DNA of 64,000 nucleotides, from NCBI GenBank assembly GCA_041652815.1, contig JBAZGN010000001.1, positions 445,855 to 509,854 on the forward strand, read 5' to 3'. Under the pieces are notes generated by a model. The model worked only from the letters and a program-made list of their open reading frames with translations, was not told where the DNA came from and did no database searches. Of this stretch, positions 1,761-28,139 are shown piece after piece; position 1 is the first letter of the stretch; every line of letters begins with the position of its first letter. The stretch is from Candidatus Omnitrophota bacterium (GTDB lineage: Bacteria > Omnitrophota > Gorgyraeia > Duberdicusellales > 4484-171). Both the position numbers and the translations under genes were made by a program.

Positions 1761-2831
1761 ATGCTTAATCTTGATAAATTAAAACAAGAACATCAAAAGA
1801 TATCTTCAGAGCTTTCACTGCCGGAAACCGTCAAAGACAGGGAGCGGTACCAGCAGCTTGCAAGGAGATTTTCTTTTCTTGAAAAAATACTTAACCTGGA
1901 AAAATTACGTAATGATTGCCTAAAAGAGAAAGAGCACCTCTCGCAAATTATCTCTAATACTAAAGAGGAAGAAGAGATAAGGAAAATGGCTAAAGAAGAA
2001 TCAGTTGCCTTAGAAGGAAAAATAAAATCCTTGCAAGATGAAATAGAAAATAAACTTTTTGAAAGCCAGGAACCGCAAAGGGATATTATCATAGAAATAA
2101 GGGCTGCCGCAGGCGGAGAAGAGTCAGCCTTATTTGTTGCAGACCTTTTAAAAATGTATTCCAAATATATTGAGAAAAACGGCTGGAAATTCGAAATGCT
2201 CAATTTAAGCCCTACAGATATAGGTGGATTTAAAGAAATAATTTTTTCAGTTTCCGGAGAAGGTGCATACTCTCATCTTAAGTTCGAAAGCGGAGTGCAC
2301 AGGGTGCAGCGCGTGCCTAATACAGAAGCAAGCGGCAGAATTCATACTTCAACCGTGACAGTTGCGGTGTTGATTGAGCCGAAAGAAATTGAAATCAATT
2401 TAAAGCCGGAGGATTTGGAAATCATAACTTGCCGCGCTTCAGGTGCTGGCGGGCAGCATGTCAATAAAACTGATTCGGCAGTGCGCATCACTCATCTACC
2501 GACGGGGCTTATGGCCGCCTGCCAGGACGAGCGTTCCCAGGGTAAAAATAAACAAAAAGCAATGCGAGTGCTTAAGGCCCGCATTTTAGAAAAAATGGAA
2601 AAAGACGCATCCAGCAAAGCTAAAACAGCAAAGCGCCTTTTGATAGGAACAGGCGAACGCAGCGAAAAAATACGCACCTATAACTTTTCGGAGCGCCGCG
2701 TTACCGACCACAGGGTAAATTTTACTATTTATCAGCTGGATAAAGTCCTTGAAGGTGAATTGGACGAAGTAATTAATAAACTTATTCAGGAAGAAAGAAA
2801 GAAGTTATACGAATTAAAAGGCCTGGTTTAA
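1761..2831 (+). CDS. prfA: Peptide chain release factor 1
   Basis: 356 aa with GGQ motif (SGAGGQHVNKTDSAVRITHLPTG) and RF-1 domain layout. It lies in the conserved rho-rpmE-prfA-prmC-murA order. Confidence 0.9.
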   Translation: MLNLDKLKQEHQKISSELSLPETVKDRERYQQLARRFSFLEKILNLEKLRNDCLKEKEHLSQIISNTKEEEEIRKMAKEESVALEGKIKSLQDEIENKLFESQEPQRDIIIEIRAAAGGEESALFVADLLKMYSKYIEKNGWKFEMLNLSPTDIGGFKEIIFSVSGEGAYSHLKFESGVHRVQRVPNTEASGRIHTSTVTVAVLIEPKEIEINLKPEDLEIITCRASGAGGQHVNKTDSAVRITHLPTGLMAACQDERSQGKNKQKAMRVLKARILEKMEKDASSKAKTAKRLLIGTGERSEKIRTYNFSERRVTDHRVNFTIYQLDKVLEGELDEVINKLIQEERKKLYELKGLV

Positions 2832-2845
2832 AGATTAATGCATTA

Positions 2846-3766
2846 ATGAATCATATGAAATTAAATGAGTGGATTAACAAAAGCGAAAATATTTTTACGC
2901 ATAGCGATTTACAATTTCTTTTAAGGCAATTTTTCTGCGACAAAGATATATTTCTGAAACAAAAAAGCATTTCTCTGGATGCAGGCAGGCTCGCATTTTT
3001 TTCGAAGATAAAAAAGGAATATAAAAAGGGAGTGCCGTTAGCCTATCTTTTAGGTAAAGAGGAATTCTTTGGCTTGGAATTTAATGTTAACCCGGATGTT
3101 TTAATACCGCGCCAGGACACGGAAGTTGTAACCGAGAAAGCCATAGAAGTAATCAGAAATCATAATTTAATCCCCTTACGGGGACGTCGCCCCACAGGGT
3201 TTGACAAGAAAGGATTCACGGGTACGCCTGCCTTTGGCAGTCAGGCTCGTTGGGCTCCAGCCGAGATGCTGGATTTATGCTGTGGTTCGGCAAATATAGC
3301 GATAACCATTAAGAAATTTTTTAGAGATAAGATAAAAATTTGGGCTTCGGATATAAGCACAGATGCCATAACCGTTGCTAAGAGTAATGTCAGGCGCCAC
3401 AAAGTAAAGATAAACTTACGCAAAGGAAACCTTTTCAGCGCTTTTTGCGGCAAGAAATTCGATATCATAGTTTCTAACCCGCCATATATAGGTAAGCCGG
3501 AAATAAAAGGCAGTTTAAAGTATGAACCGAGGATTGCCTTAGAAGCCGGCAATGACGGAATGTATTTTATAGAAAAAATAATAAAAAATGCGCATTCATA
3601 CTTAAAAGAAAGAGGATTTCTGGTAATTGAAGCAGGCTACAAACATAAAAAGCCCATTAACAGCATTCTTGAAAAAACAGGCAAATATGAGATTATAGAA
3701 TGGATTAAAGATTATGGGGGTAATTTTAGAGGAGTAGTTTTACAACACGCAGATGATCACGGATAG
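2846..3766 (+). CDS. prmC: Release factor glutamine N5-methyltransferase (HemK/PrmC), with a GC-rich internal insert
   Basis: NPPY motif (VSNPPYIGKPE) and SAM-binding LDLCCGS. About 32 aa (IPLRGRRPTGFDKKGFTGTPAFGSQARWAPAE) are inserted before motif I. Confidence 0.8.
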   Translation: MNHMKLNEWINKSENIFTHSDLQFLLRQFFCDKDIFLKQKSISLDAGRLAFFSKIKKEYKKGVPLAYLLGKEEFFGLEFNVNPDVLIPRQDTEVVTEKAIEVIRNHNLIPLRGRRPTGFDKKGFTGTPAFGSQARWAPAEMLDLCCGSANIAITIKKFFRDKIKIWASDISTDAITVAKSNVRRHKVKINLRKGNLFSAFCGKKFDIIVSNPPYIGKPEIKGSLKYEPRIALEAGNDGMYFIEKIIKNAHSYLKERGFLVIEAGYKHKKPINSILEKTGKYEIIEWIKDYGGNFRGVVLQHADDHG

Positions 3767-3874: not shown

Positions 3875-5137
3875 ATGGATAAGTTCACCATACACAAATC
3901 AACTCTTTCCGGGGAAGTATCAGTAAGCGGCTCTAAGAATGCTGCGCTTCCTGTAATAGCTGCAACTATTCTTACTGACGAAGATTGTATCCTTCATAAT
4001 GTTCCTAACCTCATGGATATAAGGACAATGGCAAAAATTCTTGAGGGGCTTGGCAAGCAAATTACATACGATAACGGCACCATGGTTATAAAAGCAACCA
4101 AAAAATGCGGCTATGTTGCTCCTTACAGGTTAGTTAGAACTATGCGTGCTTCGTTTTGCTGTCTGGGGCCGCTACTTACGCGCCGAAAAAAAGCAAAGGT
4201 TTCACTTCCCGGGGGCTGTGTTATAGGCGTGCGTCCGGTTGATTTGCATATAAAAGGTTTAAAACTCCTCGGCGCAGATATTAAAATAGAAAAAGGATAT
4301 TGTATCGCCGATGGGAAAAATATGCGGGGTAATCACTTGTACCTTGGAGGACAATTTGGCTCCTCAGTCCTTGCCACAGATAACATTATGATGGCTGCAA
4401 CGCTAATTGACGGAGAAACAATTATTGAATACGCGGCTTGTGAGCCGGAAGTAGAAAGTTTAGGGCTATTTCTTAAAAAAATGGGCGCTGACATAACCGG
4501 GGAAGGCACGCCTCTAATAAGAGTAAGAGGCGTAAAGAAGCTTGGGGGGTGTGAATTTGATATCATCCCTGACAGAATAGAGGCAGGAACGTTTCTGGCC
4601 GCAAGTTTAGCTACCAATTCGCCCCTTGTGATTAAAGGAGCAAATCCGTTTCATCTTACTTCAGCTATAGAAATTGTAAAGGAAATGGGCGCAGAAGTGC
4701 AAATTGATAATGCGCGTTCAATAAAAGTAGTGCCCAAGGGTAGCCTCCGTCCGGTTAATATTACAACTCTTCCTTATCCGGGTTTTCCTACGGATTTACA
4801 GGCGCAATTTATGATATGCCTTTGTTTTGCAAAAGGAATTTCTTTGATTACGGAAAAGATTTATCCGGACAGGTTTATGCATGTAGCCGAGCTTAACCGT
4901 ATGGGCGCCGGCATTCAAAGAAATGGGCCTTACGCAATAATAGAAGGAAAAGAAAAGCTTTTCGGCGCTGAGGTAATGGCTTCTGACCTAAGGGCTTCAG
5001 CTGCTTTGATTATTGCGGGCTTGAGCGCGGAAGATAAGACAGAAGTTTTTAGGGTATACCACATTGACCGTGGATACGAGCATATCGAAGAGAAACTACG
5101 CAAATTGGGAGCAAAGATAAAGAGAGAGAGGCAATAA
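3875..5137 (+). CDS. murA: UDP-N-acetylglucosamine 1-carboxyvinyltransferase
   Basis: About 420 aa of EPSP-synthase-fold MurA (KNAALPVIAA, LPGGCVIGVRPVDLHIKGL). Start set at ATG 3875 (MDKFTIHKS). Confidence 0.9.
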   Translation: MDKFTIHKSTLSGEVSVSGSKNAALPVIAATILTDEDCILHNVPNLMDIRTMAKILEGLGKQITYDNGTMVIKATKKCGYVAPYRLVRTMRASFCCLGPLLTRRKKAKVSLPGGCVIGVRPVDLHIKGLKLLGADIKIEKGYCIADGKNMRGNHLYLGGQFGSSVLATDNIMMAATLIDGETIIEYAACEPEVESLGLFLKKMGADITGEGTPLIRVRGVKKLGGCEFDIIPDRIEAGTFLAASLATNSPLVIKGANPFHLTSAIEIVKEMGAEVQIDNARSIKVVPKGSLRPVNITTLPYPGFPTDLQAQFMICLCFAKGISLITEKIYPDRFMHVAELNRMGAGIQRNGPYAIIEGKEKLFGAEVMASDLRASAALIIAGLSAEDKTEVFRVYHIDRGYEHIEEKLRKLGAKIKRERQ

Positions 5138-8399: not shown

Positions 8400-9564
8400 A
8401 AAAGGCTATTTCGGCGCATTCGGCGGTAAATTTATGCCGGAGACACTATTTTCCTGTCTTAAGGAGCTTGATTCCTTTTATGATAAGGCAAAAAAAGACA
8501 CTGCCTTTAAAAAAGAATTCCAATCTTACCTTAAAAACTATGCGGGGCGCCCTACTATGCTTTATTTTGCTAAAAATTTAAGCAAGCACCTTGGTATGAA
8601 GATTTATCTAAAAAGAGAAGACCTCCTTCATACCGGAGCGCATAAAATAAACAATTCTCTCGGCCAGGCTCTTCTTGCCCATACAATGGGTAAGAAGAGG
8701 GTAATTGCCGAAACCGGTGCCGGCCAGCACGGGGTGTCAGCAGCAACAGTCGCGCGGCTTTTTAATTTAAAATGTGATGTTTATATGGGAGAGGAAGATA
8801 TCGCGCGGCAGCGAATGAATGTTTTTAGAATGAAAATTCTGGGTGCCAATGTAATTGCCGTAAAAAGCGGTTCAAAAACGCTGAAAGACGCCTGCAATGA
8901 AGCAATGAGAGACTGGGTTACCAATGTAAGAGATACTTATTATCTTATCGGTTCAACTTTTGGCCCGCATCCGTATCCGATGATGGTAAGGGATTTCCAA
9001 TCGGTTATAGGTAAGGAAGCAAGAGCGCAAATTATTAAAGAACAAAAAAGGCTTCCGCATTTTCTTTTAGCTTGTGTTGGCGGCGGCAGTAATTCTATGG
9101 GGTTGTTTGCTCCATTTTTTAAAGATGCGAAGGTGAAATTTATCGGCGTTGAAGCAGGAGGCTTAAACAAAAGCTTAAACTCAGCTTCAATAAGTTTCGG
9201 CGATGTCGGTGTGTTGCATGGAGCAAAAACTTATATTCTGCAGGATAGGTTCGGACAAGTAAAAGGAACACATTCCATCGCCGCAGGCCTGGATTACCCG
9301 GGTGTCGGGCCGGAACACTCTTTTTATAACGACTCAAACCGCGCCAAGTATGTTGCCGTAAAGGACAAAGAAGCCTTGGAAGGTTTTAAGATGCTAAGTG
9401 AGCTTGAGGGAATAATTCCTGCGCTTGAAAGCGCGCATGCAATTTATTACTTAAAAAAATTGGCAAAGCGCGCCAAAGACGCCTTAGTTGTAGTTTGTTT
9501 ATCCGGCAGAGGAGATAAGGATTTGGAAATAATACAAGAGCATTTAGAAGCGGATCCTCGCTGA
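8383..9564 (+). CDS. trpB: Tryptophan synthase beta chain
   Basis: 393 aa with the PLP-binding lysine region HTGAHKINN and GGGSN motifs. Confidence 0.95.
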
Positions 9565-9583
9565 TAGTAGCGGATTTATACAA

Positions 9584-9838
9584 ATGAATAAGAAACAATT
9601 AATAGTAAGCCTTATAATGATCGGCTTAATTTTGGTTGCAATATTCGTCTTTTTAAATTATGAAATTCTTTATGGTAGAGGATTGGATGGTAAAAAAGAT
9701 TTATATTTTTCGCCATTGTCAAATCATCCCAGAATCTATGCTGTTAGATTGCAAATTTATAATTTCGCTAAATATGTTTTGCCTTTTATAGTTATGAGTG
9801 GTCTTTTGGTATACTTTTTGAAGGATAAAAGAAGGTAA
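9584..9838 (+). CDS. Small hypothetical membrane protein (2 predicted TM) inserted between trpB and trpA
   Basis: 84-aa ORF with two hydrophobic helices. No homology recognised. Confidence 0.35.
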   Translation: MNKKQLIVSLIMIGLILVAIFVFLNYEILYGRGLDGKKDLYFSPLSNHPRIYAVRLQIYNFAKYVLPFIVMSGLLVYFLKDKRR

Positions 9839-9841
9839 TAT

Positions 9842-10630
9842 ATGGCGACGATAAAAGAAAAATTTCAGCAACTTAAAAAACAGGGCAAAAAGGCGTTTAT
9901 TGCCTATGTGCCGTTTGGTTTTCCTTCTGTGCGGCACACAAAAGATATACTTTTGGCTCTTCAAGATTCCGGAGTGGATATTATTGAACTGGGTATTCCT
10001 TTTTCTGACCCGGTAGCTGATGGGCCTGTGATTCAGGAGGCAACTTCAATTGCATTAAAAAATGGGGCAAACACTCAGAATTTATTCATAACGTTAAATA
10101 AAATAAAAAAAGATATCAAGGTGCCGCTGGCTTTGATGACTTATTACAACCCAATTTTCAGGTTCGGCATCGATAACTTTTTTAAAAGTATGGATAAAGC
10201 CTGTGTTTCCGGCATTCTTACGGTAGATTTGCCTATTGATGAGGCATCCGAATATTTAAAAAAGGCTAAAAAATACAAGATAGAAACAGTATTTTTCATA
10301 ACCCCAGTTACCCCGCTTGCGCGCGCAAAAAAAATTATCGAAGCATCTGGAGGATTTGTTTATTACATTTCCGTAACTGGTACTACCGGAGTGCGTGAAA
10401 TTTCTTATGAAGCTTTGGCTAGCCACATAAGACAACTGAAAAAAAATACCACGCTTCCTATATGTGTGGGTTTCGGAGTGCATACAAAAGAGCAATTTGC
10501 AAATATCTGTAAATTCAGCGACGGAGCAATTATAGGAAGCGCGATAGTTAAATTTATAAGAGATAATCATTCAAAGCACGGGTTTTTGGATAAATTGAAA
10601 AAATATGTCATATCGTTGAGGGGTAGTTAA
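9842..10630 (+). CDS. trpA: Tryptophan synthase alpha chain
   Basis: 262 aa with the GIPFSDPVADGPVIQ motif and TIM-barrel TrpA architecture. Confidence 0.9.
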   Translation: MATIKEKFQQLKKQGKKAFIAYVPFGFPSVRHTKDILLALQDSGVDIIELGIPFSDPVADGPVIQEATSIALKNGANTQNLFITLNKIKKDIKVPLALMTYYNPIFRFGIDNFFKSMDKACVSGILTVDLPIDEASEYLKKAKKYKIETVFFITPVTPLARAKKIIEASGGFVYYISVTGTTGVREISYEALASHIRQLKKNTTLPICVGFGVHTKEQFANICKFSDGAIIGSAIVKFIRDNHSKHGFLDKLKKYVISLRGS

Positions 10631-10757: not shown

Positions 10758-12026
10758 ATGTACAACATAGCCAACATAAACGGTGCAACTTTCATATTTT
10801 CTCCTTTTAAAAACCTGGAAACTGCATCCTTGGGTGTTTTTATCAAGATAGGTTCACGTTTTGAAGCTAAAAAATTGCGAGGTATTTCTCATTTCCTTGA
10901 ACATATGGTTTTTAAGGGCAGTAAAGATTATTCTTATCGGGAAATAAAGAGAGAAATTGAAGGCAGAGGTGGTGCGTTAAACGGTTTTACCTCCCAGGAA
11001 ACAACCGCCTATTATGCTCATTTTCTAAACAAAAATCTGCCGGTTACTTTGGACATACTTCTTGACATGGTATTTTGCCCCCGGTTAAACATAAACGATA
11101 TAACAAAGGAAAGAAATGTAATACTCGAAGAAATAAAAATGTATAATGACCTTCCTGCTTCGCGCGCCGCAAGCATTCTCGATAAGCTTGTCTGGCCGGA
11201 TAATTCTCTTGGCGAGGAGATTATAGGAGATTTTTCTACCGTAAGCCGGATAAAGAGGGCTGACCTTTCAAACTTTAGAGATATTTATTATAAGCCTTCA
11301 AATTTAGTAATTTCTTGTAGCGGAGATTATAACCGCGAAAAAGTATTAAATTTGCTTAAAGAAAAAATTAAGAAAATTCCCCAGAGTATTAATCTTAAAT
11401 ATACTGCTCCGCGGCCGCTTTACGGTATGCACGTTGAAATAGAAAATAAAAAGATTGAACAAACGCATCTTTGTATAGGTTTTAGAAGCGTTTCTTATTT
11501 AAGCCAGCAAAAATTTGTTGCCGAGCTTATAAACGTTATATTGGGCGCAAATATGAGCAGCCGTCTTTTTGAGGAAATAAGGGAAAAGAAAGCTCTTTGC
11601 TATGAAATTTCAACAGATGTAAGAAAATATAGAGATAGTGGAGTGTTTGTGGTGCACGCAGGCCTGAACAAGGATAAAATCAAAATAGCCATAGCAAGCA
11701 TTTTTAAAGAGCTTGAAAAGATTAAAGAAATAAAAGTTTCTGATTGTGAATTAATCCGGGCGAAGGACTATATATTGGGCCAGATAATAATGGGTTTGGA
11801 GCGCCCCCAGGGCCGGATGTTTTATCTTGCGGAAAATTACCTTTCTTTGGGTAAAATTTATTCTTTGGAAGAGATAAAAGAAGAAATAAAAAAGGTAACT
11901 GCCGAGGAGATAAGAAAATTATCCAGAGAAATATTCAAATTCAATAACTTATGTGTCTCCTGCGTGGGGGATGTGGATGGCAAGACCGAAAAATTAATCA
12001 GGAAAATATTAAGTTCATTCAAATAA
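10758..12026 (+). CDS. M16 family zinc peptidase (pitrilysin/insulinase-like)
   Basis: Inverted zinc motif HFLEHMVFKGS (HxxEH) near the N-terminus, 422 aa. Confidence 0.8.
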   Translation: MYNIANINGATFIFSPFKNLETASLGVFIKIGSRFEAKKLRGISHFLEHMVFKGSKDYSYREIKREIEGRGGALNGFTSQETTAYYAHFLNKNLPVTLDILLDMVFCPRLNINDITKERNVILEEIKMYNDLPASRAASILDKLVWPDNSLGEEIIGDFSTVSRIKRADLSNFRDIYYKPSNLVISCSGDYNREKVLNLLKEKIKKIPQSINLKYTAPRPLYGMHVEIENKKIEQTHLCIGFRSVSYLSQQKFVAELINVILGANMSSRLFEEIREKKALCYEISTDVRKYRDSGVFVVHAGLNKDKIKIAIASIFKELEKIKEIKVSDCELIRAKDYILGQIIMGLERPQGRMFYLAENYLSLGKIYSLEEIKEEIKKVTAEEIRKLSREIFKFNNLCVSCVGDVDGKTEKLIRKILSSFK

Positions 12027-12098: not shown

Positions 12099-12527
12099 AT
12101 TCCTAAAAAAACTTCACCAAACAAATTAAAAGCTTTAAAAATCGCGCAGTTTACCCTTGATAAAAAAGCGAAACATACTGTTATTCTTGATGTGAGTTCG
12201 CTTTCCGGCCTTTGCGATTATTTTGTTATCTGTAGCGCAGAAACCGGCACTCAGGCCGATGCTATCTTGAATTGGGTGGCTGCAAACGCCAAAGAGAATA
12301 ATCTTAAGATACATCACTACGAAAAAGACGAATTGTCTGACTGGGTTCTTGTTGATTTTTCTGATGTAATACTGCATGTATTCGTAAATGAGGCGAGAAA
12401 ATTTTATAACCTTGAGCATCTTTGGGCTGACGCTAAAAGAGTAAGAATCCCCAGGAAAGTAGAAGCGGATACCCGCGGATCAAAACACGGATTGCCGCCA
12501 GCGATTCGCTTGCGTAAATCCGCGTAG
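12099..12527 (+). CDS. rsfS: Ribosome silencing factor RsfS (Iojap), C-terminus extended by a repeat element
   Basis: Core VILDVSSLSGLCDYFVICSAETGTQADAI matches RsfS/DUF143. The true start is uncertain: the frame is open from 12084 with AGGAGG at 12086, and the ORF track starts at GTG 12192. The last ~23 aa (EADTRGSKHG...) are encoded by the palindromic repeat. Confidence 0.7.
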   Translation: MPKKTSPNKLKALKIAQFTLDKKAKHTVILDVSSLSGLCDYFVICSAETGTQADAILNWVAANAKENNLKIHHYEKDELSDWVLVDFSDVILHVFVNEARKFYNLEHLWADAKRVRIPRKVEADTRGSKHGLPPAIRLRKSA

Positions 12528-12552
12528 ATATCCGCGGTAATCCGCATCTATT
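12459..12552. repeat. ~95-bp GCGGAT-rich imperfect palindromic element (family A), copy 1
   Basis: GTAGAAGCGGATACCCGCGGAT...ATCCGCGGTAATCCGCATCTA. Terminal inverted repeats shared with copies at 14643, 22682 and 25563. Confidence 0.8.
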
Positions 12553-12567
12553 ATAAGGAGAAATCAT

Positions 12568-12825
12568 ATGCACGAGTATCACTTAGCCGAATCAGTCCTA
12601 AAAAGCATTTTAGAAAAAACGAAACATATGTCTGGCATAAAGAGCATAACGTTTATTCGCTTAAAAATAGGTAACCTAAAAATGGTAAGCAAAGAAACCT
12701 TTAGTGAAACTTTTAAACAGGTGGCAAAAGGAACGCTTTGCGAAAATGCAAAGCTGGACATAGAGGAAGTAATGGGAGATGTTCTTGTCGTGAAGGATAT
12801 TGAAGGGGAATTCTTGGGCAAATAA
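12568..12825 (+). CDS. HypA-like nickel-binding N-domain protein lacking the C-terminal zinc finger
   Basis: MHEYHLAESVL...GTLCENAKLDIEEV matches the HypA/HybF N-terminal MHE domain. The 85-aa ORF stops before any CxxC...CxxC module. Confidence 0.5.
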   Translation: MHEYHLAESVLKSILEKTKHMSGIKSITFIRLKIGNLKMVSKETFSETFKQVAKGTLCENAKLDIEEVMGDVLVVKDIEGEFLGK

Positions 12826-12828
12826 AGA

Positions 12829-13398
12829 ATGTTTACCGGAATAATAAAGGAATTAGGCAGCGTAGAAAAAATATCAAAAAACAGCGCCTTGACTAAAATA
12901 GGCGTAAAAACAAAGGCTGTTTTTGAGCAAGCGAATGTTTCGGACAGCATTTCTATAGACGGCGTTTGCCTGACGGTTACAGATAAAAAAAACGATATAC
13001 TTTTTTTTGATGCGGTCAAATCTACGATTGAAAAAACAAATCTCAAAAGGATAAAGCTAAGAGATTTTGTAAACCTTGAACCAGCGCTTAAAATGGGAGG
13101 CAGTCTTGGCGGCCACTTTGTCTTAGGGCATGTTGACTGTGAAGCCAAGGTAAAAAGAATAATTAAGAAAAATAATTATTGGCAACTAGAGGTAAACTTT
13201 CCGGTAAACTTTAGAAAATATGTCACAGATAATGGCTCAGTTTCTTTAAATGGCATTTCTCTTACTGTAAAAAAAGTTACACCGCGTTTTTTTACCGTTG
13301 ACATAATCCCTTTTACCTACGAGAATACGAATTTGAAATATAAAAGAGTAGGCGACTGGATTAATGTAGAGTTTGATTATTTATTGAAACGCAGATAA
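12829..13398 (+). CDS. ribE: Riboflavin synthase alpha subunit
   Basis: MFTGIIKELG start with internal duplication (GVCLTV / GISLTV lumazine-binding repeats), 189 aa. Confidence 0.85.
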   Translation: MFTGIIKELGSVEKISKNSALTKIGVKTKAVFEQANVSDSISIDGVCLTVTDKKNDILFFDAVKSTIEKTNLKRIKLRDFVNLEPALKMGGSLGGHFVLGHVDCEAKVKRIIKKNNYWQLEVNFPVNFRKYVTDNGSVSLNGISLTVKKVTPRFFTVDIIPFTYENTNLKYKRVGDWINVEFDYLLKRR

Positions 13399-13426
13399 TT
13401 TCAAATGAAATTACCTGTATTTAATT

Positions 13427-13504
13427 CGGGGCGTGGCTCAGCCCGGCTAGAGCGCTTGGTTCGGGACCAAGATGTCGGTGGTTCAAATCCACTCGCCCCG
13501 ACCA
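13427..13504 (+). tRNA. tRNA-Pro (anticodon CGG)
   Basis: Manual cloverleaf fold: acceptor CGGGGCG/CGCCCCG, D-arm GCTC/GAGC, anticodon stem CTTGG/CCAAG with loop TTCGGGA, T-arm GGTGG-TTCAAAT-CCACT, discriminator A, encoded CCA. Confidence 0.85.
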
Positions 13505-13635
13505 TTTCTTACTAACAAATGTCGGCAACGCCATAGGTTCAACCCCGAACCAGAACAAAGTTCGGCTCGGGGTTGCCCAGCACCGAACTTCGTTCTGGTG
13601 CTGGGCAAATCCCTCTCTCCCGACTCTGTTTTTAT

Positions 13636-13697
13636 CTGCTATTCCTTTGATACGGCCTTTGGCCAGGCTTAAGACTTCCTTCGGCCGCTGCCATCTG
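13636..13697. repeat. ~62-bp GC-rich element (family C), intergenic copy downstream of tRNA-Pro
   Basis: GCTATTCCTTTGATACGGCCTTTGGCCAGGCTTAAGACTTCCTTCGGCCGCTGCCATCTG, about 87% identical to the copy at 27528..27589. Confidence 0.75.
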
Positions 13698-13714
13698 TTT
13701 TCCCTACTTTTTCA

Positions 13715-13742
13715 TTGCAAATCAACGATTATCCGATAAAAT
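13715..13742 (+). promoter_or_regulatory. Putative promoter (TTGCAA-16-TAAAAT) upstream of ROK glucokinase
   Basis: TTGCAA at 13715-13720 and TAAAAT at 13737-13742, just upstream of the glk start. Confidence 0.35.
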
Positions 13743-13748
13743 ATTGTG

Positions 13749-14711
13749 ATGAAAGTTTTTTTGGGTATTGATTGGGGGGGTACCTATATAAAGGCCGGGA
13801 TAGTTAATTCGAGCGGCAAAATCCTAAAAAAAATAGTATATTCCTCGAGCCAGCTTAAAAGGCGGCAAGCGTTTACAGGCGAGATAAAAAGATTAAAAGA
13901 TACATTTAAAAAATATAATATCAAAGCCGTAGGCATAGGCGCTCCAGGTATAATTAATGTAGAGCGAGGCTCGATATACTACCTGCCAAATGTCCCGGGT
14001 TGGGAAAATTCCCCTCTTAAAACAATGCTCGAGAAAGAGCTTAAAATACCCGTGTTTATTGATAATGATGCAAATATTTTTGCCCTTGCTGAAGTACGTA
14101 AAGGCGCAGGGCGCGGAATGAGCCGCGCGATATTCTTAACCCTTGGCACAGGCCTTGGCGGCGCGGTTATTTTTAATGGGCAAATTATAGAAGGGAAAAC
14201 CAGCGCTTCTGAGCTCGGGCATGTGGTTATTGATGTAAACGGAAAAAAATGCGGCTGCGGAGGCTATGGGTGTATCGAAACTTTTACCGGAAGTAACCAT
14301 TTGCTCGAAAGGTACCGCCAGCTTAAAAAAATAAAAACTGCGCCAAAAGAAGTTAAAGAAATTTTTGATAAAGCAAAAACGGGAAAGAAAGAAGCATTAA
14401 TCGTTTGGCAGGAGTTTTCCAAATATTTAGGAAAATTTCTTGCAGGAATGATTAATATATTCAATCCGCAGGTCATAATTCTTGGAGGAGGAGTTTCAGG
14501 GGCATTTAACCTGTTTCGGCCTTTGCTTTGGCAGGCTATAAAAGCGCAAGCAATGTGGCCGCAGCTTACCGGCTTAAAATTAGTTAAAGCAAAGCTAAAA
14601 GATGCAGGAATTATAGGCGCAGCCTTGTTGGCTAAGGATAAACTAGAAGCGGATACCCGCGCAACTAACGCGGATAAACGCAAGCCAAGTCCCGTGCGGA
14701 TATCCGCGTAG
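13749..14711 (+). CDS. ROK-family glucokinase, C-terminus extended by a repeat element
   Basis: Has the DWGGT N-terminal motif and the ROK zinc motif GHVVID...CGCGGYGCIE. The tail LEADTRATNADKRKPSPVRISA is read from the repeat. Confidence 0.8.
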   Translation: MKVFLGIDWGGTYIKAGIVNSSGKILKKIVYSSSQLKRRQAFTGEIKRLKDTFKKYNIKAVGIGAPGIINVERGSIYYLPNVPGWENSPLKTMLEKELKIPVFIDNDANIFALAEVRKGAGRGMSRAIFLTLGTGLGGAVIFNGQIIEGKTSASELGHVVIDVNGKKCGCGGYGCIETFTGSNHLLERYRQLKKIKTAPKEVKEIFDKAKTGKKEALIVWQEFSKYLGKFLAGMINIFNPQVIILGGGVSGAFNLFRPLLWQAIKAQAMWPQLTGLKLVKAKLKDAGIIGAALLAKDKLEADTRATNADKRKPSPVRISA

Positions 14712-14736
14712 ATATCTGCGGCAATCCGCTTCTATA
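14643..14736. repeat. Family A palindromic element, copy 2
   Basis: CTAGAAGCGGATACCCGCG...GCGGCAATCCGCTTCTATA. Supplies the C-terminal 22 codons of the glucokinase ORF. Confidence 0.8.
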
Positions 14737-14749
14737 AATAAGGAGTGCG

Positions 14750-15397
14750 ATGAAATTATTTATCGACAGTGCAAACATCGAAGAAATAAAAAAGGCAAAT
14801 GCGCTTGGGGTTCTTGACGGAGTTACTACGAATCCTACTCTTCTTGCCAAAGAGAAACAAAAACCGCTTGAGCAACTTAAAAAAATATGCAAGGAAGTTA
14901 CCGGGCCTGTAAGCGCTGAAGTTATTGCGCTTAGTGCGCCGGATATGATAAAAGAAGCGCGGCAACTTTCTAAGCTATCAGATAATATTGTCATAAAAAT
15001 TCCTTCAACCGTTGAAGGCCTGAAAGCGACAAAAGAACTTACTTCCTTGGGTATTAAGACAAACCTTACTCTTTGTTTCTCGGCTTCTCAAAGCTTACTT
15101 GTTGCAAAGGCAGGTGCTACTTATGTTTCTCCTTTTGTGGGCAGGCTCGATGATATTTCCTTCGAAGGAATGGATTTAATAAAGGATATCAAGTTAATCT
15201 ATAATCAATATAATATTCCCACCCAGATTATCGTTGCCTCTATCCGGCACCCCTTGCATTTTGTTGAAGCCGCCCGAATAGGCGCGGATGTTGCAACGGT
15301 GCCCTATGCAGTCATCGAAAAACTTATGCAACACCCTTTAACCGATATAGGAATTAAAAGATTCCTTGAGGATTGGAAAACTTTGGATAAAAAATAG
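14750..15397 (+). CDS. tal: Short-type transaldolase / fructose-6-phosphate aldolase family protein
   Basis: 215 aa, [15 protein letters not shown]...GVTTNPTLL, as in TalC/FsaA. Confidence 0.8.
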
Positions 15398-21722: not shown

Positions 21723-22685
21723 ATGAAGTTACTTGTAACAGGCGGTTGTGGGTTTATAGGCTCTAATTTCATACACTATATTCTTGAAACATATCCGGAC
21801 TACAAAGTTACAAATCTGGATTGTTTAAATTATGCCGGTAATTTAGAAAATCTTTCGGATATCGCTAAGAATAAAAATTATAAGTTTGTAAAAGGTAACA
21901 TCAGAGACTTTAAGGTGATGAGCAAATTAATAAAAGAAAGCGATTATGTGGTCAATTTTGCCGCGCAAACCCATGTCGACAGGTCTATAAAAAAGGCCAG
22001 CGAGTTTATTGAAACAAATATAAACGGAGTATTTACTTTGCTTGAAGCCTGCCGTAATTCCAAAATAAAACTTTTCATACAGATAAGTACCGATGAAGTA
22101 TATGGCAGCACCTTGGAAGGCGCATTTATAGAAACAGATTTGCTTTGCCCCTCAAGCCCTTATTCGGCATCAAAGGCAGCAGCGGATTGTTTGTGCAATG
22201 CTTATGCGGCTACTTATAAAATCCCAGTGATAGTAACAAGGTGTACAAATAATTTTGGGCCTTATCAATACCCGGAAAAAGTAATACCACTTTTCGTAAC
22301 CAATCTTTTGCAAGGTAAGAAGGTGCCGCTTTACGGAGACGGGCTTAATGTCAGAGACTGGATTTATGTTTATGACCACGTGCGGGCGATTGATTTTCTG
22401 ATGCATAAAGGAAAGACAGGAGAAATATATAATATATCTTCGAATAACGAAGTCTCAAACATCGAATTGACAAAACTAATACTTAAAAAATTTGGCCTCG
22501 ACGAAAATTACATAAAATATGTGCAGGACCGCCCTGCTCATGACCGCCGCTATTCGCTGGATTCTTCAAGGTTACGTTTACTTGGCTGGAAGCCGGTTTA
22601 TGATTTCAGTACATCTCTGGACGCAACTATTGATTGGTATAAAGAAAACACTAAGTGGTGGACGAAAATAAAACAGCAAAAGTAG
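21723..22685 (+). CDS. rmlB: dTDP-glucose 4,6-dehydratase
   Basis: TGGCGFIGSNF, STDEVYG, YSASKAAAD and CTNNFGPYQYPEKVIP are canonical RmlB motifs. Confidence 0.9.
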   Translation: MKLLVTGGCGFIGSNFIHYILETYPDYKVTNLDCLNYAGNLENLSDIAKNKNYKFVKGNIRDFKVMSKLIKESDYVVNFAAQTHVDRSIKKASEFIETNINGVFTLLEACRNSKIKLFIQISTDEVYGSTLEGAFIETDLLCPSSPYSASKAAADCLCNAYAATYKIPVIVTRCTNNFGPYQYPEKVIPLFVTNLLQGKKVPLYGDGLNVRDWIYVYDHVRAIDFLMHKGKTGEIYNISSNNEVSNIELTKLILKKFGLDENYIKYVQDRPAHDRRYSLDSSRLRLLGWKPVYDFSTSLDATIDWYKENTKWWTKIKQQK

Positions 22686-22776
22686 AAGCGGATTACCGCG
22701 GATACTTACGCGGATTTCCGCACACGAACTCGCTTGCGTTTATCCGCGTTTAGATCCGCGGATATCCGCTTCTATA
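22682..22776. repeat. Family A palindromic element, copy 3
   Basis: GTAGAAGCGGATTACCGCGGATAC...GATCCGCGGATATCCGCTTCTATA between rmlB and rmlD. The rmlB stop is the TAG at the element start. Confidence 0.8.
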
Positions 22777-22786
22777 AAAGAAGCGA

Positions 22787-24638: not shown

Positions 24639-25598
24639 ATGAATATACTAATAACTGGCGGAGCAGGTTTCATCGGTTCGCATTTATGTAAAGCTTTCCT
24701 TCAAAGAGGAGATTATATAATTTGCGTTGATAACTTTATTACCGGCTCAAAAGATAACATTAAAGAGTTTCTAAATAGCCAAAATTTCCGGCTTATTGAG
24801 CATGATATTTCAACACCTTTATACATAAACGACAGCATAGATTGGGTGTTGCATTTTGCATCACTGGCTTCGCCCAAAGATTATATAACTTACCCGATAA
24901 AAACTTTAAAATCAGGGTTACTTGGAACACATAATTGTTTAGGTATCGCTAAAGCAAAGAATGCAAAATTTTTCTTTGCTTCAACCAGTGAAATTTATGG
25001 GGACCCGTTGATACATCCGCAAGTAGAAGAATATTGGGGCAATGTAAACTCTATAGGCGTGCGTAGCTGCTATGATGAGAGTAAAAGAGGCGGAGAGGCC
25101 CTTGTTTATGCCTATAACCGCCAGCATTCAATAGATGTAAGAATAGTCAGAATATTTAATACTTATGGACCCAATATGCAGATAGAAGACGGAAGAGTTG
25201 TTTCCAATTTTATTGTTCAGGCCTTAAGGGGAGAAGATTTGACTATTTACGGCCGTGGCAACCAAACCAGGTCTTTTTGTTATGTTGATGATCTTGTGGC
25301 TGGTCTGTTAAGAATAATGGAGGTTAATTATAAATTACCGTTAAATCTTGGGAATCCTTCTGAGTTTATGGTAAGTGAGTTGGCAAAGTTAGTTCTAAAA
25401 CTGACAAAATCAAAATCAAAAATAAAATTCTTGCCTTTGCCGGAAGATGACCCCAAGAAAAGAAAACCGGATATCACAAAAGCAAAGAAAATTCTTTCAT
25501 GGCAACCGCAAATACGATTGGAGGAAGGCCTTAAAAAGACTATAGAATATTTTAGGAGAAAACTAGAGGCGGATACCCGCGGATCCATACGCGGATAA
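24639..25598 (+). CDS. uxs: UDP-glucuronate decarboxylase (UDP-xylose synthase), C-terminus extended by a repeat element
   Basis: RIFNTYGPNM, DGRVVSNFIVQALRGEDLTIYGRGNQTRSF and CYVDDLV match the UXS family closely. The tail LEADTRGSIRG is read from the repeat. Confidence 0.8.
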   Translation: MNILITGGAGFIGSHLCKAFLQRGDYIICVDNFITGSKDNIKEFLNSQNFRLIEHDISTPLYINDSIDWVLHFASLASPKDYITYPIKTLKSGLLGTHNCLGIAKAKNAKFFFASTSEIYGDPLIHPQVEEYWGNVNSIGVRSCYDESKRGGEALVYAYNRQHSIDVRIVRIFNTYGPNMQIEDGRVVSNFIVQALRGEDLTIYGRGNQTRSFCYVDDLVAGLLRIMEVNYKLPLNLGNPSEFMVSELAKLVLKLTKSKSKIKFLPLPEDDPKKRKPDITKAKKILSWQPQIRLEEGLKKTIEYFRRKLEADTRGSIRG

Positions 25599-25655
25599 AC
25601 ACAAACGAATTGTTTGCGTAAATCCGCGTTACTATCCGCGGTAATCCGCTTCTAC
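25563..25655. repeat. Family A palindromic element, copy 4
   Basis: CTAGAGGCGGATACCCGCGGATCC...ATCCGCGGTAATCCGCTTCTACA between uxs and the gmd-like gene. Supplies the uxs tail. Confidence 0.8.
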
Positions 25656-25671
25656 AACAAAATAAACACAT

Positions 25672-26625
25672 ATGAAAGTTCTAATTACAGGCATAACCGG
25701 ATTTGCCGGCTCGCATCTTGCAGAATATCTATTAAGTAAAATCAATATAAATATATATGGCACAACTTTTCTTGATTTAGAAATAAAAAATATAAATCAT
25801 ATAAAGGAAAACATAAATCTTTACGAAACAGACATCAAAGACTATAAAAACATAGAATCTATCATCGCGGAAGTTATGCCAGATAGGATTTTTCATCTGG
25901 CCGGGCGGACATCTGTTGGTGATTCATTCTCTAGCCCGCAGGAAACCCTGGTTACAAATATCACGGGGCAATTGAATATTTTTGAGGCCGTAAGAAAACT
26001 TAAGTTGAACCCTTGTATACATATTGCTTGCTCTTCCGATGAATATGGATTTGTTTATGAGAATGAATTGCCCATAAAAGAAACAAATCCATTCCGGCCG
26101 CTTTCTCCTTACGCTGTTAGCAAAGTAACGCAGGATTTGCTGGCTTGGCAATATTTTAAAAACTATGGCTTAAACATAATAATTACGCGGGCATTTAATC
26201 ATACCGGTGTCCGTAGCAGCGAAGCATTTGTGTGCTCAAGTTTTGCAAAGCAGATTGCTATGATTGAAAAACAGAAACAACCGCCGGTCATATATACAGG
26301 TAACCTTGACTCCATCAGGGATTTTAGCGATGTAAAAGATGTGGCAAGGGCTTATTGGCTTGCCTTAGAAAAGTGCAGGCCGGGAGAGGCTTATAATATA
26401 TGCAGCGGCAAAGGTTATAAGATAAGAGAAATTTTAGATATACTTGTTTCATACGCAACAACTAAAGTGGAGATAAAACAAGACCCAAAAAGATTAAGGC
26501 CATCAGATACATCTGTTATCGTCGGCGATTCTACTAAATTCAGAAAGGTAACGGGATGGCAACCAGAAATCCCCCTTGAGAGAACTCTTGAAGATTTGTT
26601 AGATTACTGGCGGCAAAATGTGTAA
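25672..26625 (+). CDS. NAD-dependent sugar-nucleotide dehydratase/reductase (GDP-mannose 4,6-dehydratase / Rmd-like)
   Basis: ITGITGFAGSHLAEYLL N-terminus as in the Gmd/Rmd subfamily, plus SPYAVSKV (YxxxK). Confidence 0.6.
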   Translation: MKVLITGITGFAGSHLAEYLLSKININIYGTTFLDLEIKNINHIKENINLYETDIKDYKNIESIIAEVMPDRIFHLAGRTSVGDSFSSPQETLVTNITGQLNIFEAVRKLKLNPCIHIACSSDEYGFVYENELPIKETNPFRPLSPYAVSKVTQDLLAWQYFKNYGLNIIITRAFNHTGVRSSEAFVCSSFAKQIAMIEKQKQPPVIYTGNLDSIRDFSDVKDVARAYWLALEKCRPGEAYNICSGKGYKIREILDILVSYATTKVEIKQDPKRLRPSDTSVIVGDSTKFRKVTGWQPEIPLERTLEDLLDYWRQNV

Positions 26626-26644: not shown

Positions 26645-27877
26645 ATGAAAAAACTCACCATACCACTAGTTGACCTTAAAAGAGAATACGCGTTTCTCAA
26701 AAAAGGAATCGGCAGGCAGATAAAAGACTGCTTAGCCAGCCAGCATTGGATTCTGGGCGAAAAAGTAACGCAATTTGAAAAAGAACTTTCAAAATATTTA
26801 AAGTCTAAATACATAATAGGCTTAAATTCAGGAACAGACGCCATCATTCTTTCCTTACGAGCGCAAGCAATGAAGCTTAAGGGTAAGGAATATTTTGATA
26901 AAGAAGATGAAATAATTACAACCCCTTTTACTTTTATCGCAACCGCAGAGGCCATAATAAGAAGCGGTGCAACCGTTGTTTTTGTTGATATCGACCCAGA
27001 AACTTTCAATATTAACCCTCAATGCATCAGAGAAGCTATCAATAAAAATACAGTTGGAATTTTACCAGTACATCTTTTTGGCCTTGCCTGCGATATGGAA
27101 AATATCGTTGAAATCGCCAAGGAAAACGATTTGTTTATCGTTGAGGACGTTGCCCAGGCTTTTGGGGCAGGGTATGTATCAGAGGACAGAGGACAAAAGA
27201 TAGAAGACAGAAAAAAACTGGGAACGATAGGCAACTGTGGGGCTTTTAGTTTTTTCCCTTCAAAGAATTTAGGCTCATACGGAGATGCCGGCGCCATTTC
27301 AACAGATGACAGGAAAGTAGCTGAACTCATAGTAACATTGAGGAATCACGGCCAAACCCATCAATACGATGCAAATTACATAGGTTATAACTCGCGCCTT
27401 GATTCTATCCAGGCAGCCATTCTTTTGGCAAAGCTGAAATATGTCGATAAATTTAATAATTTACGCATCAAGATAGCTCAAAAATACCACGATGGCCTAA
27501 AGAATATTAAAAACATTTATCTGCCATCCGCCATTCCTTCGACACGGCCTTCGGCCAGGCTCAGGACTTCCTTTGGTCGCTGCCATATGCCATCTTCAAC
27601 GCCTCAGCATGTCTATAACCTCTACACAATTAAAGTTGCAGCGAACATCCGCGATGGAATGCTCAAATTTCTGAATAGTGCCGGTATTCAGGCGCGCAGC
27701 TATTACCCTCTGCCGTTGCATAAAATGGAAGCATTCAAAACGGCAAAAATTTCTGGAAATCTTATTAATACAGAAGAAGCTTCAAGGGGCGTATTATCTC
27801 TTCCAGTAAACCCTTTTTTAAAGAATAGAGAAATCGACTATATCATTGAAAATATTAGAGTTTTAGCAAAAAAATAG
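26645..27877 (+). CDS. DegT/DnrJ/EryC1/StrS family sugar aminotransferase carrying an in-frame ~20-aa repeat-derived insertion
   Basis: PLP-dependent fold (FFPSKNLGSYGDAGAI, LRNHGQ). The segment STRPSARLRTSFGRCHMPSS interrupts the conserved P...VYHLY region. Confidence 0.8.
   Translation: MKKLTIPLVDLKREYAFLKKGIGRQIKDCLASQHWILGEKVTQFEKELSKYLKSKYIIGLNSGTDAIILSLRAQAMKLKGKEYFDKEDEIITTPFTFIATAEAIIRSGATVVFVDIDPETFNINPQCIREAINKNTVGILPVHLFGLACDMENIVEIAKENDLFIVEDVAQAFGAGYVSEDRGQKIEDRKKLGTIGNCGAFSFFPSKNLGSYGDAGAISTDDRKVAELIVTLRNHGQTHQYDANYIGYNSRLDSIQAAILLAKLKYVDKFNNLRIKIAQKYHDGLKNIKNIYLPSAIPSTRPSARLRTSFGRCHMPSSTPQHVYNLYTIKVAANIRDGMLKFLNSAGIQARSYYPLPLHKMEAFKTAKISGNLINTEEASRGVLSLPVNPFLKNREIDYIIENIRVLAKK
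27528..27589. repeat. Family C element, copy inside the DegT aminotransferase coding sequence (in-frame)
   Basis: GCCATTCCTTCGACACGGCCTTCGGCCAGGCTCAGGACTTCCTTTGGTCGCTGCCATATG. Reading frame is maintained and GC content is elevated against AT-rich surroundings. Confidence 0.75.
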
Positions 27878-27959: not shown

Positions 27960-28139
27960 ATGCAAGTCATTCCTAACGAAATTTATACCCTCAAAGAAAC
28001 TGAAGAAATACTAAAATTGAGCCGTTCAACTATCCTCAGGCTTATCAAAAAAAGTGAACTTAAAACCGTAAAAATCGGGCGTCAGCATAGAATTTTAGGC
28101 CGGGAAATTCTAAAAATGGTAAGATACATAGAAAATTAA
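27960..28139 (+). CDS. Small helix-turn-helix DNA-binding protein (excisionase/MerR-like HTH_17)
   Basis: 59-aa ORF that is not in the supplied track. LKETEEILKLSRSTILRLIKKSELKTVKIGRQHRI matches the excisionase-type HTH. A consensus sigma70 promoter precedes it. Confidence 0.55.
   Translation: MQVIPNEIYTLKETEEILKLSRSTILRLIKKSELKTVKIGRQHRILGREILKMVRYIEN

Follow-up and report, generated by a model that had tools for sequence, protein, structure and literature searches.

To our knowledge, the colonisation of protein genes by repeats that keep the reading frame is textbook matter only for Rickettsia. Here we describe a GC-rich repeat with a body of 45 nt, one copy of which lies in frame in a gene of a Candidatus Omnitrophota bacterium. 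The analysed sequence, a stretch of 64,000 nt (contig JBAZGN010000001.1 of assembly GCA_041652815.1, positions 445,855 to 509,854 of the forward strand) that is called the window in the following, carries the element twice: copy A is situated inside a gene for a DegT/DnrJ/EryC1-family sugar aminotransferase, and copy B in the spacer between a tRNA-Pro gene and a ROK-family kinase gene. With a probability of roughly two thirds, we regard the element as a non-autonomous repeat that has inserted into short tandem heptamer repeats at both loci.

Four groups of described repeats have to be considered for comparison. The small dispersed repeats (SDRs) of Nostoc and Anabaena, families SDR1-8, are reportedly 21-27 nt in length and have neither coding capacity nor terminal inverted repeats. 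They are said to be present or absent between orthologous sites, to be embedded in tandem heptameric repeats, to be nested in other repeats and to insert precisely. The Nostoc/Anabaena SDR work of Elhai et al. (2008) is cited in PMC3116915 and PMC4390886, and SDR5 inserts between fixed nucleotides of HIP1 (PMC4390886). According to PMC10969869, the elements of Rickettsia known as RPEs (Rickettsia palindromic elements; Ogata et al. 2000) are palindromic, about 100-150 bp long and restricted to Rickettsia. They are found in frame in unrelated housekeeping genes, where they are translated into additional residues that the fold can accommodate, as well as in intergenic regions. Repetitive extragenic palindromic (REP) elements and REPINs are mobilised by REP-associated tyrosine transposases (RAYTs; PMC3116915). 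As a rule they are short, imperfectly palindromic, arranged as inverted doublets and present in many extragenic copies per genome. For MITEs (miniature transposable elements with inverted repeats; ERIC, Nezha and others), in-frame intragenic copies are known (PMC10969869).

Two copies of the element and their insertion sites

The best ungapped alignment of the two copies pairs 27526-27589 with 13634-13697 and shows 54 identical positions out of 64 (84%), the similarity ending on both sides; BLAST between the copies gave 87% identity over 54 nt. A first-pass annotation of the window, made from the letters alone, had described a segment of about 62 nt in frame inside 26645..27877 that resembles 13636..13697 and is locally rich in GC. 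Both statements held up, the GC content being 0.60 over 27530-27589 compared with 0.37 for the window. The flanks of the copies are unrelated. Copies A and B lie about 14 kb apart, both on the + strand, and each is solitary, with no inverted partner. A degenerate pattern of the 30-nt core matched at these two sites only in the window and at none in 100 shuffles. Copy A also contains the window's single occurrences of the 8-mer CCTTCGAC and, following it, of the 9-mer GCTCAGGAC. The features concerned are the following.

26645..27877, + strand: coding sequence of the DegT/DnrJ/EryC1-family sugar aminotransferase, 410 aa, host of copy A (open reading frame, ORF; Pfam PF01041, E = 2.9e-103)
27521..27534, + strand: left flank of copy A, two tandem heptamers CTGCCAT CCGCCAT, the first of which supplies conserved Leu-Pro codons (read from the sequence)
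27535..27579, + strand: 45-nt body of copy A, TCCTTCGACACG GCCTTCGGCCAG GCTCAGGAC TTCCTTTGGTCG, 15 codons encoding PSTRPSARLRTSFGR (alignment with family members)
27580..27593, + strand: right flank of copy A, two tandem heptamers CTGCCAT ATGCCAT (read from the sequence)
27536..27604, + strand: codons for residues 298-320, a low-confidence loop before the strand 327-331 (AlphaFold2 model)
13636..13642, + strand: heptamer CTGCTAT, left of copy B
13643..13687, + strand: 45-nt body of copy B, intergenic, TCCTTTGATACGGCCTTTGGCCAGGCTTAAGACTTCCTTCGGCCG (alignment to copy A)
13688..13694, + strand: heptamer CTGCCAT, right of copy B, which may be a target-site duplication or a piece of an older heptamer array
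13427..13504, + strand: tRNA-Pro(CGG), upstream neighbour of copy B
13749..14711, + strand: ROK-family kinase gene, downstream neighbour of copy B

CTGCYAT heptamers bracket both 45-nt bodies, copy A having two heptamers on each side, and the segment common to the copies measures 64-74 nt when the flanking heptamers are included. The body can be parsed as TCCTTCGACACG / GCCTTCGGCCAG / GCTCAGGAC / TTCCTTTGGTCG, that is, as three YCCTTYGR modules around a GCTCAGGAC core. Its ends are direct repeats (TCCTTCGAC ... TTCCTTTGGTCG); terminal inverted repeats are absent. Palindromy, implied by the likeness to RPEs that the first-pass annotation had seen, was not found: as RNA, neither strand of either copy folded better than 200 shuffles (z -0.26 to +0.39). 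What survives of that likeness is the in-frame insertion of repeated, GC-rich DNA foreign to DegT into a surface loop; the missing palindromy and the length of 45 nt speak against it.

Nine of the ten differences between the copies are transitions. The family consensus is preserved in copy A, which has a single mismatch to the 21-mer of the family. Copy B departs from the consensus mainly through changes of C to T and of G to A, the kind that neutral decay would be expected to produce where a genome is rich in AT. This pattern also bears on the idea that a coding copy and a non-coding near-copy could be the variable and template repeats of a diversity-generating retroelement. Of the ten differences, nine are ordinary transitions and one alone concerns an adenine in either putative template; moreover, the 64-nt pair is too short, and no reverse transcriptase was found among the ORFs scanned with Pfam (14 of about 57 in the window). 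The substitution pattern excludes such a pair, and the chance that this explanation is correct is negligible.

Copy A leaves the reading frame of the DegT gene intact and introduces no stop codon. Gene and element are identical in independently assembled contigs from JGI and ENA (L001 and L002), by which an assembly artefact was rejected, and the protein is 100% identical to one protein of a Candidatus Omnitrophica metagenome-assembled genome. The extra DNA consists of the 45-nt body (15 codons) and three extra CNGCCAT heptamers (21 nt), which add up to 66 nt or 22 codons, and the frame is therefore kept. The flanks of copy A give a period-7 signal of 0.46, compared with at most 0.30 at other periods. 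Judged from the sequence, excising the 66 nt of 27528-27593 would give LPSSTPQHVY, a loop of basal length as in close relatives. A simple excision between target-site duplications was rejected: it would take out the 59 nt that separate the CTGCCAT copies and so disrupt the frame, which stays intact only if 66 nt or just the 45-nt body are lost.

The suggestion of the first-pass annotation that the insert might form a surface loop agrees with the protein model. AlphaFold2, run on the orthologue alignment, gave a mean pLDDT of 83 and values below 50 for residues 298-320, and the insert is predicted to be a disordered surface loop. We infer that this loop is translated and that the enzyme tolerates the insert.

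Copy B falls in no credible ORF, and a promoter-like site (13715-13742) lies between it and the ROK gene. Relatives of this locus on three contigs, L091, L092, and L093, were recovered via the transaldolase cluster nearby (aa identity of 90% or more); the first two are nearly identical, and L093 stems from the same sequencing run as L004, a contig with a DegT orthologue that is treated below. In all three, the order of the genes is kept (riboflavin synthase, tRNA-Pro, ROK, transaldolase, LptD), and the spacer flanks are conserved (left ACAAATCCnTCTyTCyCGA, right TTTTTCATTGCAAATCAAsGATwATCCGATAAAATATTGTGATGAAAG). The 45-nt body, in contrast, is absent from all three loci. Where the window reads CTGCTAT, 45-nt body, CTGCCAT CTGTTTT, the empty site of L091 reads CTACCAT CTGAAAT CTGCTAT CTGTTTT; it thus contains a single CTGCTAT, but the site itself is a degenerate heptamer array. 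From this comparison we conclude that copy B is an insertion relative to the three syntenic relatives.

The surroundings of copy B contain further repeats. Just 3' of tRNA-Pro, at 13536-13610, two interleaved inverted repeats (CCAGAACAAAGTTCGG/CCGAACTTCGTTCTGG and TTGCCCAGCACC/GGTGCTGGGCAA) could form a pseudoknot or alternative hairpins; the sequence differs in L091-L093. L091 (about 4915-5024) and L092 contain about 110 nt more than the window and L093 immediately behind ATGAAAGTTTTTT, the conserved beginning of the ROK gene; this segment has the inverted repeat GTGTATCGGAT/ATCCGATACAC, and the annotated ROK start is shifted downstream. A second, truly palindromic family of about 95 nt (TAGAAGCGGAT...ATCCGCTTCTA) is found at gene boundaries of the window at 12453-12570, 14637-14754, 22679-22778, and 25557-25674, with a partial copy at 9545-9584. 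The ROK gene owes its last approximately 17 codons (…LEADTRATNADKRKPSPVRISA) to the copy at 14637; in L091, L092, and L093 this gene stops earlier, and BLASTN of the repeat found no match at these loci. This family is more RPE-like than the 45-nt element.

The DegT loop among orthologues

For the host gene of copy A, 34 DegT orthologues were aligned and the loop was extracted from 120. Between '..IQLP' and 'HVYNLYTIKV' this loop is hypervariable: its basal length is about 7 residues, lengths between about 4 and about 60 residues occur, and it is often filled with tandem heptanucleotide repeats. In the first-pass annotation about 20 aa had been counted as added to a baseline of about 7 residues; the two DegT paralogues in the window do have this baseline, and the alignment shows 16 extra residues at copy A relative to them, but among the orthologues the length varies widely.

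The comparison with orthologues gave two different answers. L003 carries the closest orthologue (82% aa identity), whose 30-nt right flank is identical to that of the window gene; its loop consists of five tandem ACTTAnA heptamers and contains nothing resembling the element. The more distant orthologue in L004 (73% aa identity), on the other hand, has ATTCCTTCGAC-CCAGCTCAGGAC-AAGCAGCCAT (also parsed as ATTCCTTCGAC-CCAGCTCAGGAC-..GCAGCCAT) at the same position of the loop, a segment that by its sequence is a shorter relative of the element. Nothing like the element was found in 117 of the 120 loops. The loop may have been hit repeatedly, or the insertion may be old and have been replaced later in L003.

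The relative in L004 would also be accounted for if the loop were an ancestral and possibly functional part of DegT, inherited vertically, with copy B as a stray fragment derived from the gene. When a 7-nt gap is allowed, the similarity between copies B and A indeed reaches into the TAT-CTG-CC codons. However, the closest orthologue lacks the element, the great majority of the loops are unlike it, and the peptide is predicted to be disordered. Furthermore, ATCTGCTAT already exists without the body in the empty site of L091, which identifies it as a target and not as a DegT-derived sequence. Beyond the element, no similarity to DegT is found beside copy B, and the reading of copy B as a pseudogene fragment was rejected on that ground. 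Altogether, vertical inheritance of the loop has a small chance of being right.

Several observations concern heptamers in this gene in general. In many of the Omnitrophota orthologues (P0002-P0120), the loop peptides show a 7-residue period, for example LNTQYSILNT, FGLRTLDLGL, and LSQEPRAKSQEP. Such a period is the signature of tandem heptanucleotide repeats read in all three frames, and the heptamer differs by lineage. Since gain or loss of one heptamer shifts the frame, the loop arrays could serve to switch a surface-sugar gene by phase variation. The window gene contains a second variable insert, which lies outside the element and is given for context:

27176..27205, + strand: purine-rich, heptamer-like (GGACAGA) insert VSEDRGQKIE of DegT

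In the orthologue of L005, the heptamers at the site of this insert (10526-10576) are the reverse complement of a loop array of about 150 nt (10886-11038), and the duplex of site and loop is predicted at -57 kcal/mol, compared with -31 for shuffles. These heptamers also match arrays flanking a neighbouring gene for a 23S-IVS-protein-like product (L005:6003-6398). Mutual pairing of the two insert sites was considered as an explanation and rejected; it holds in L005 and is absent from the window gene. Upstream of the orthologous cluster (L005:1-1950), a UDP-glucose dehydrogenase gene has matches to an intein (PF14890) and to LAGLIDADG (PF14528). In the window, DegT is followed at about 27960-28139 by an ORF of 59 residues of the HTH_17 type (excisionase/MerR-like), which is also present in L003 and lies within a nucleotide-sugar biosynthesis cluster.

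A wider family in unrelated contigs

The element belongs to a wider family, TCCYTCGAC-n-GCTCAGGAC-TTCCTTYGGTCG, which was found with different flanks in unrelated metagenome contigs. The 17-mer TTCGACAAGCTCAGGAC (core YCC-TTCGACAAGCTCA-GGAC) occurs in 83 contigs of a viral collection; nearly all matches have a CC directly upstream that had not been selected for, and many are arranged as inverted pairs or short hairpins. In Comamonas, Sphingobium, and Methylobacter, plasmids and chromids carry the core as an unannotated multi-copy intergenic hairpin, CCGTTCATCC-TTCGACAAGCTCA-GGACGAACGG, with as many as 17 places on one replicon. When the 3' half (CTYARGACTTCCTTYGGYCG) was used for a scan, 20 metagenome contigs were returned, about 12 of which also have the 5' module (L104, L101, L103, L097, L108, L113, L100). 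Simple members of the family measure 32-33 nt compared with 45 nt for the window element, the architecture of which (two 5' modules, core, 3' module) recurs in L098. In AT-rich contigs the core is found within long ORFs, for instance those for a PIF1-like helicase, for a phage portal protein and, at the N-terminus, for a dehydrogenase.

The family is found twice in L097, a haem-biosynthesis operon. One copy is situated just 3' of hemB. The second lies inside hemC (2788-3573), contains a nested insert and is surrounded by (CGTCGTT)n heptamers; it creates an in-frame insert of 37 residues relative to solved HemC structures. In the cobA-hemD fusion of the same operon (1295-2788; uroporphyrinogen methyltransferase/synthase), an inverted pair of the REP-like core was seen (PSTSLRVNG ... 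SPEFIEGRS).

Strong period-7 flanks were detected in L097, L108, and L107 (0.58-0.71) and not in other family members; the association with heptamers is thus partial. At L107:387-406 a family member directly adjoins heptamer arrays of the type (TTTACAG/TTTTCAG)n and the beginning of an ORF, the N-terminus of which (MSDYKKLKVWEDAHKF) we take to be typical of 23S-IVS four-helix-bundle proteins. This arrangement suggests a link between the element, heptamer arrays, and 23S-IVS cassettes.

No Rfam family was detected for the element when the window was scanned at gathering thresholds, 13380-13800 by E-value, and 14 motif-bearing loci at gathering thresholds; tRNA-Pro was the only match. A search of the literature by DNA string and by peptide string found no paper matching the element. 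The family, made up of very small bacterial repeats, is widespread and apparently has no name.

The strong conservation of the core across phyla and its hairpin form in proteobacterial copies would fit a functional cis-element, such as a protein-binding site in RNA or DNA, an RNase III site, or a terminator-like signal, that was recruited at both loci. The position of copy B in a 5' leader or promoter region agrees with such a role. Yet the window copies fold no better than shuffles and have no match in Rfam, the core of copy B has been lost by transitions, and the contexts are heterogeneous, comprising coding loops, gene ends, and spacers. We give recruitment of a functional signal a slim chance.

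The different flanks of the family members are of relevance for another alternative, namely a single event in which about 50 nt were copied from one locus to the other, or came from a third one, with CTGCYAT/ATCTGC microhomology priming a template switch or an ectopic gene conversion and with no dedicated machinery. The same microhomology of 7-12 nt at both junctions (TTTATCTGCYAT ... CTGCCAT) is in line with such a templated event, as are the fact that two copies only are known and the lack of a transposase among the scanned ORFs. Against it stands the recurrence of the body in many unrelated contigs with different flanks, twice in L097 alone, and the 15% divergence means that the copies are not a direct pair of donor and recipient. 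We consider a single templated copying event rather unlikely.

Strength of the insertion reading and comparison with known repeats

Taken together, the presence or absence of the body at both loci, the shared heptamer flanks, and the family in unrelated genomes, including its insertions into coding sequence, argue for mobility of the element and against both a private accident and an ancestral loop. According to the insertion reading, the element would have landed in a disordered loop of variable length between '..IYLP' and 'HVYNLYTIKV' that is prone to heptamer arrays, and DegT would bear and tolerate a floppy surface loop of 22 residues. The element would move by a transposition-like process that targets or duplicates 7-nt units; homing into existing heptamer arrays, a behaviour that SDRs are reported to show, would be an alternative route. 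It would have neither a coding nor an RNA-structural role of its own and would represent selfish or neutral DNA, and its presence is presumably without functional effect. Further copies are to be expected elsewhere in the genome. In summary, the element behaves like a miniature form of mobile DNA whose presence a protein is able to tolerate.

Several points weigh against this reading. The 7-nt direct repeats could be pre-existing heptamers and not target-site duplications, and the absence of the body from L091 could in principle be due to a deletion between direct repeats. The relative in L004 leaves room for shared ancestry of the DegT copy in place of a lineage-specific insertion and makes the polarity of the DegT event ambiguous. 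Neither copy is a fresh copy of the other, as they differ by 15%. Only two copies are known, counted within the 64-kb window. The description as a dispersed element in the first-pass annotation is accordingly borne out by the family in unrelated contigs, including the in-frame copy in hemC, but dispersal within the genome rests on these two copies. Scans of public genome and metagenome contigs with exact and degenerate patterns were empty, the host contigs L001 and L002 lying outside those collections. When six-frame peptides were searched for among 5.8 billion proteins, DegT itself was the sole match (34 bits); the search is insensitive to diverged copies, which would fall below the limit of E = 10. 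Finally, neither a transposase nor a RAYT (Y1_Tnp) was found among the 14 scanned ORFs of the window.

If the element is mobile, the outcome known from RPEs is found here in a free-living candidate phylum, with an element that is three times smaller, not palindromic, and tied to heptamer arrays. Presence and absence at two loci relative to close relatives provide a clean natural experiment on the movement of very small DNA. The family in unrelated metagenomes and in hemC suggests that loop insertions have a general source that has been overlooked; to gene callers and structure predictors, such insertions would present themselves as low-confidence segments. A broader proposal, possible and on balance doubtful, is that of an undescribed cross-phylum class of ultra-small mobile modules (about 32-45 nt) built of YCCTTCGR units and the GCTCAGGAC core. 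By homing into heptamer arrays such modules would colonise, in frame, disordered loops, termini, and linkers of housekeeping proteins (DegT; HemC and CobA-HemD in L097), and they would perhaps share machinery with the heptamer arrays and with the 23S-IVS cassettes that are flanked by such arrays (L005, L107). Should the link to heptamer arrays hold, it would offer a handle on how heptamer repeats of the cyanobacterial type and small dispersed repeats spread.

With RPEs the element has in common that it is found in frame in a housekeeping enzyme, at a loop compatible with the fold, and also as an intergenic copy. It differs in its length of 45 nt, in not being palindromic, and in belonging to another phylum, Omnitrophota; for all its RPE-like behaviour, it is not an RPE. 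REP elements are resembled by the family core CCGTTCRTCC-TTCGACAAGCTCA-GGACGAACGG, a short, GC-rich, multi-copy intergenic hairpin that often occurs as inverted doublets (proteobacterial replicons, metagenome contigs). The window copies, in contrast, are single, not palindromic, and without stem arms, and one of them is intragenic, hairpins and doublets being found only in distant family members; moreover, classical REPs are species-specific, whereas the core of the element recurs across distant taxa. Like MITEs, the element is non-autonomous and has a possible target-site duplication of 7 nt, but it lacks terminal inverted repeats, is below the typical MITE size, and has no identifiable parent insertion sequence.

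In its behaviour the element most resembles the cyanobacterial SDRs, with which it was compared by description only and from which it differs in its length (45 nt, with family units of about 32-33 nt), in its occurrence in Omnitrophota and uncultured lineages, and in its sequence, YCCTTCGR plus GCTCAGGAC. Like the SDRs as described, it is well under 100 nt long, codes for nothing of its own and has no inverted repeats at its ends. As is said of SDRs, it is present here and absent at orthologous sites, in DegT when compared with L003 and in the spacer when compared with L091, L092, and L093, and copy A is likewise set among tandem heptamers, two on each side.

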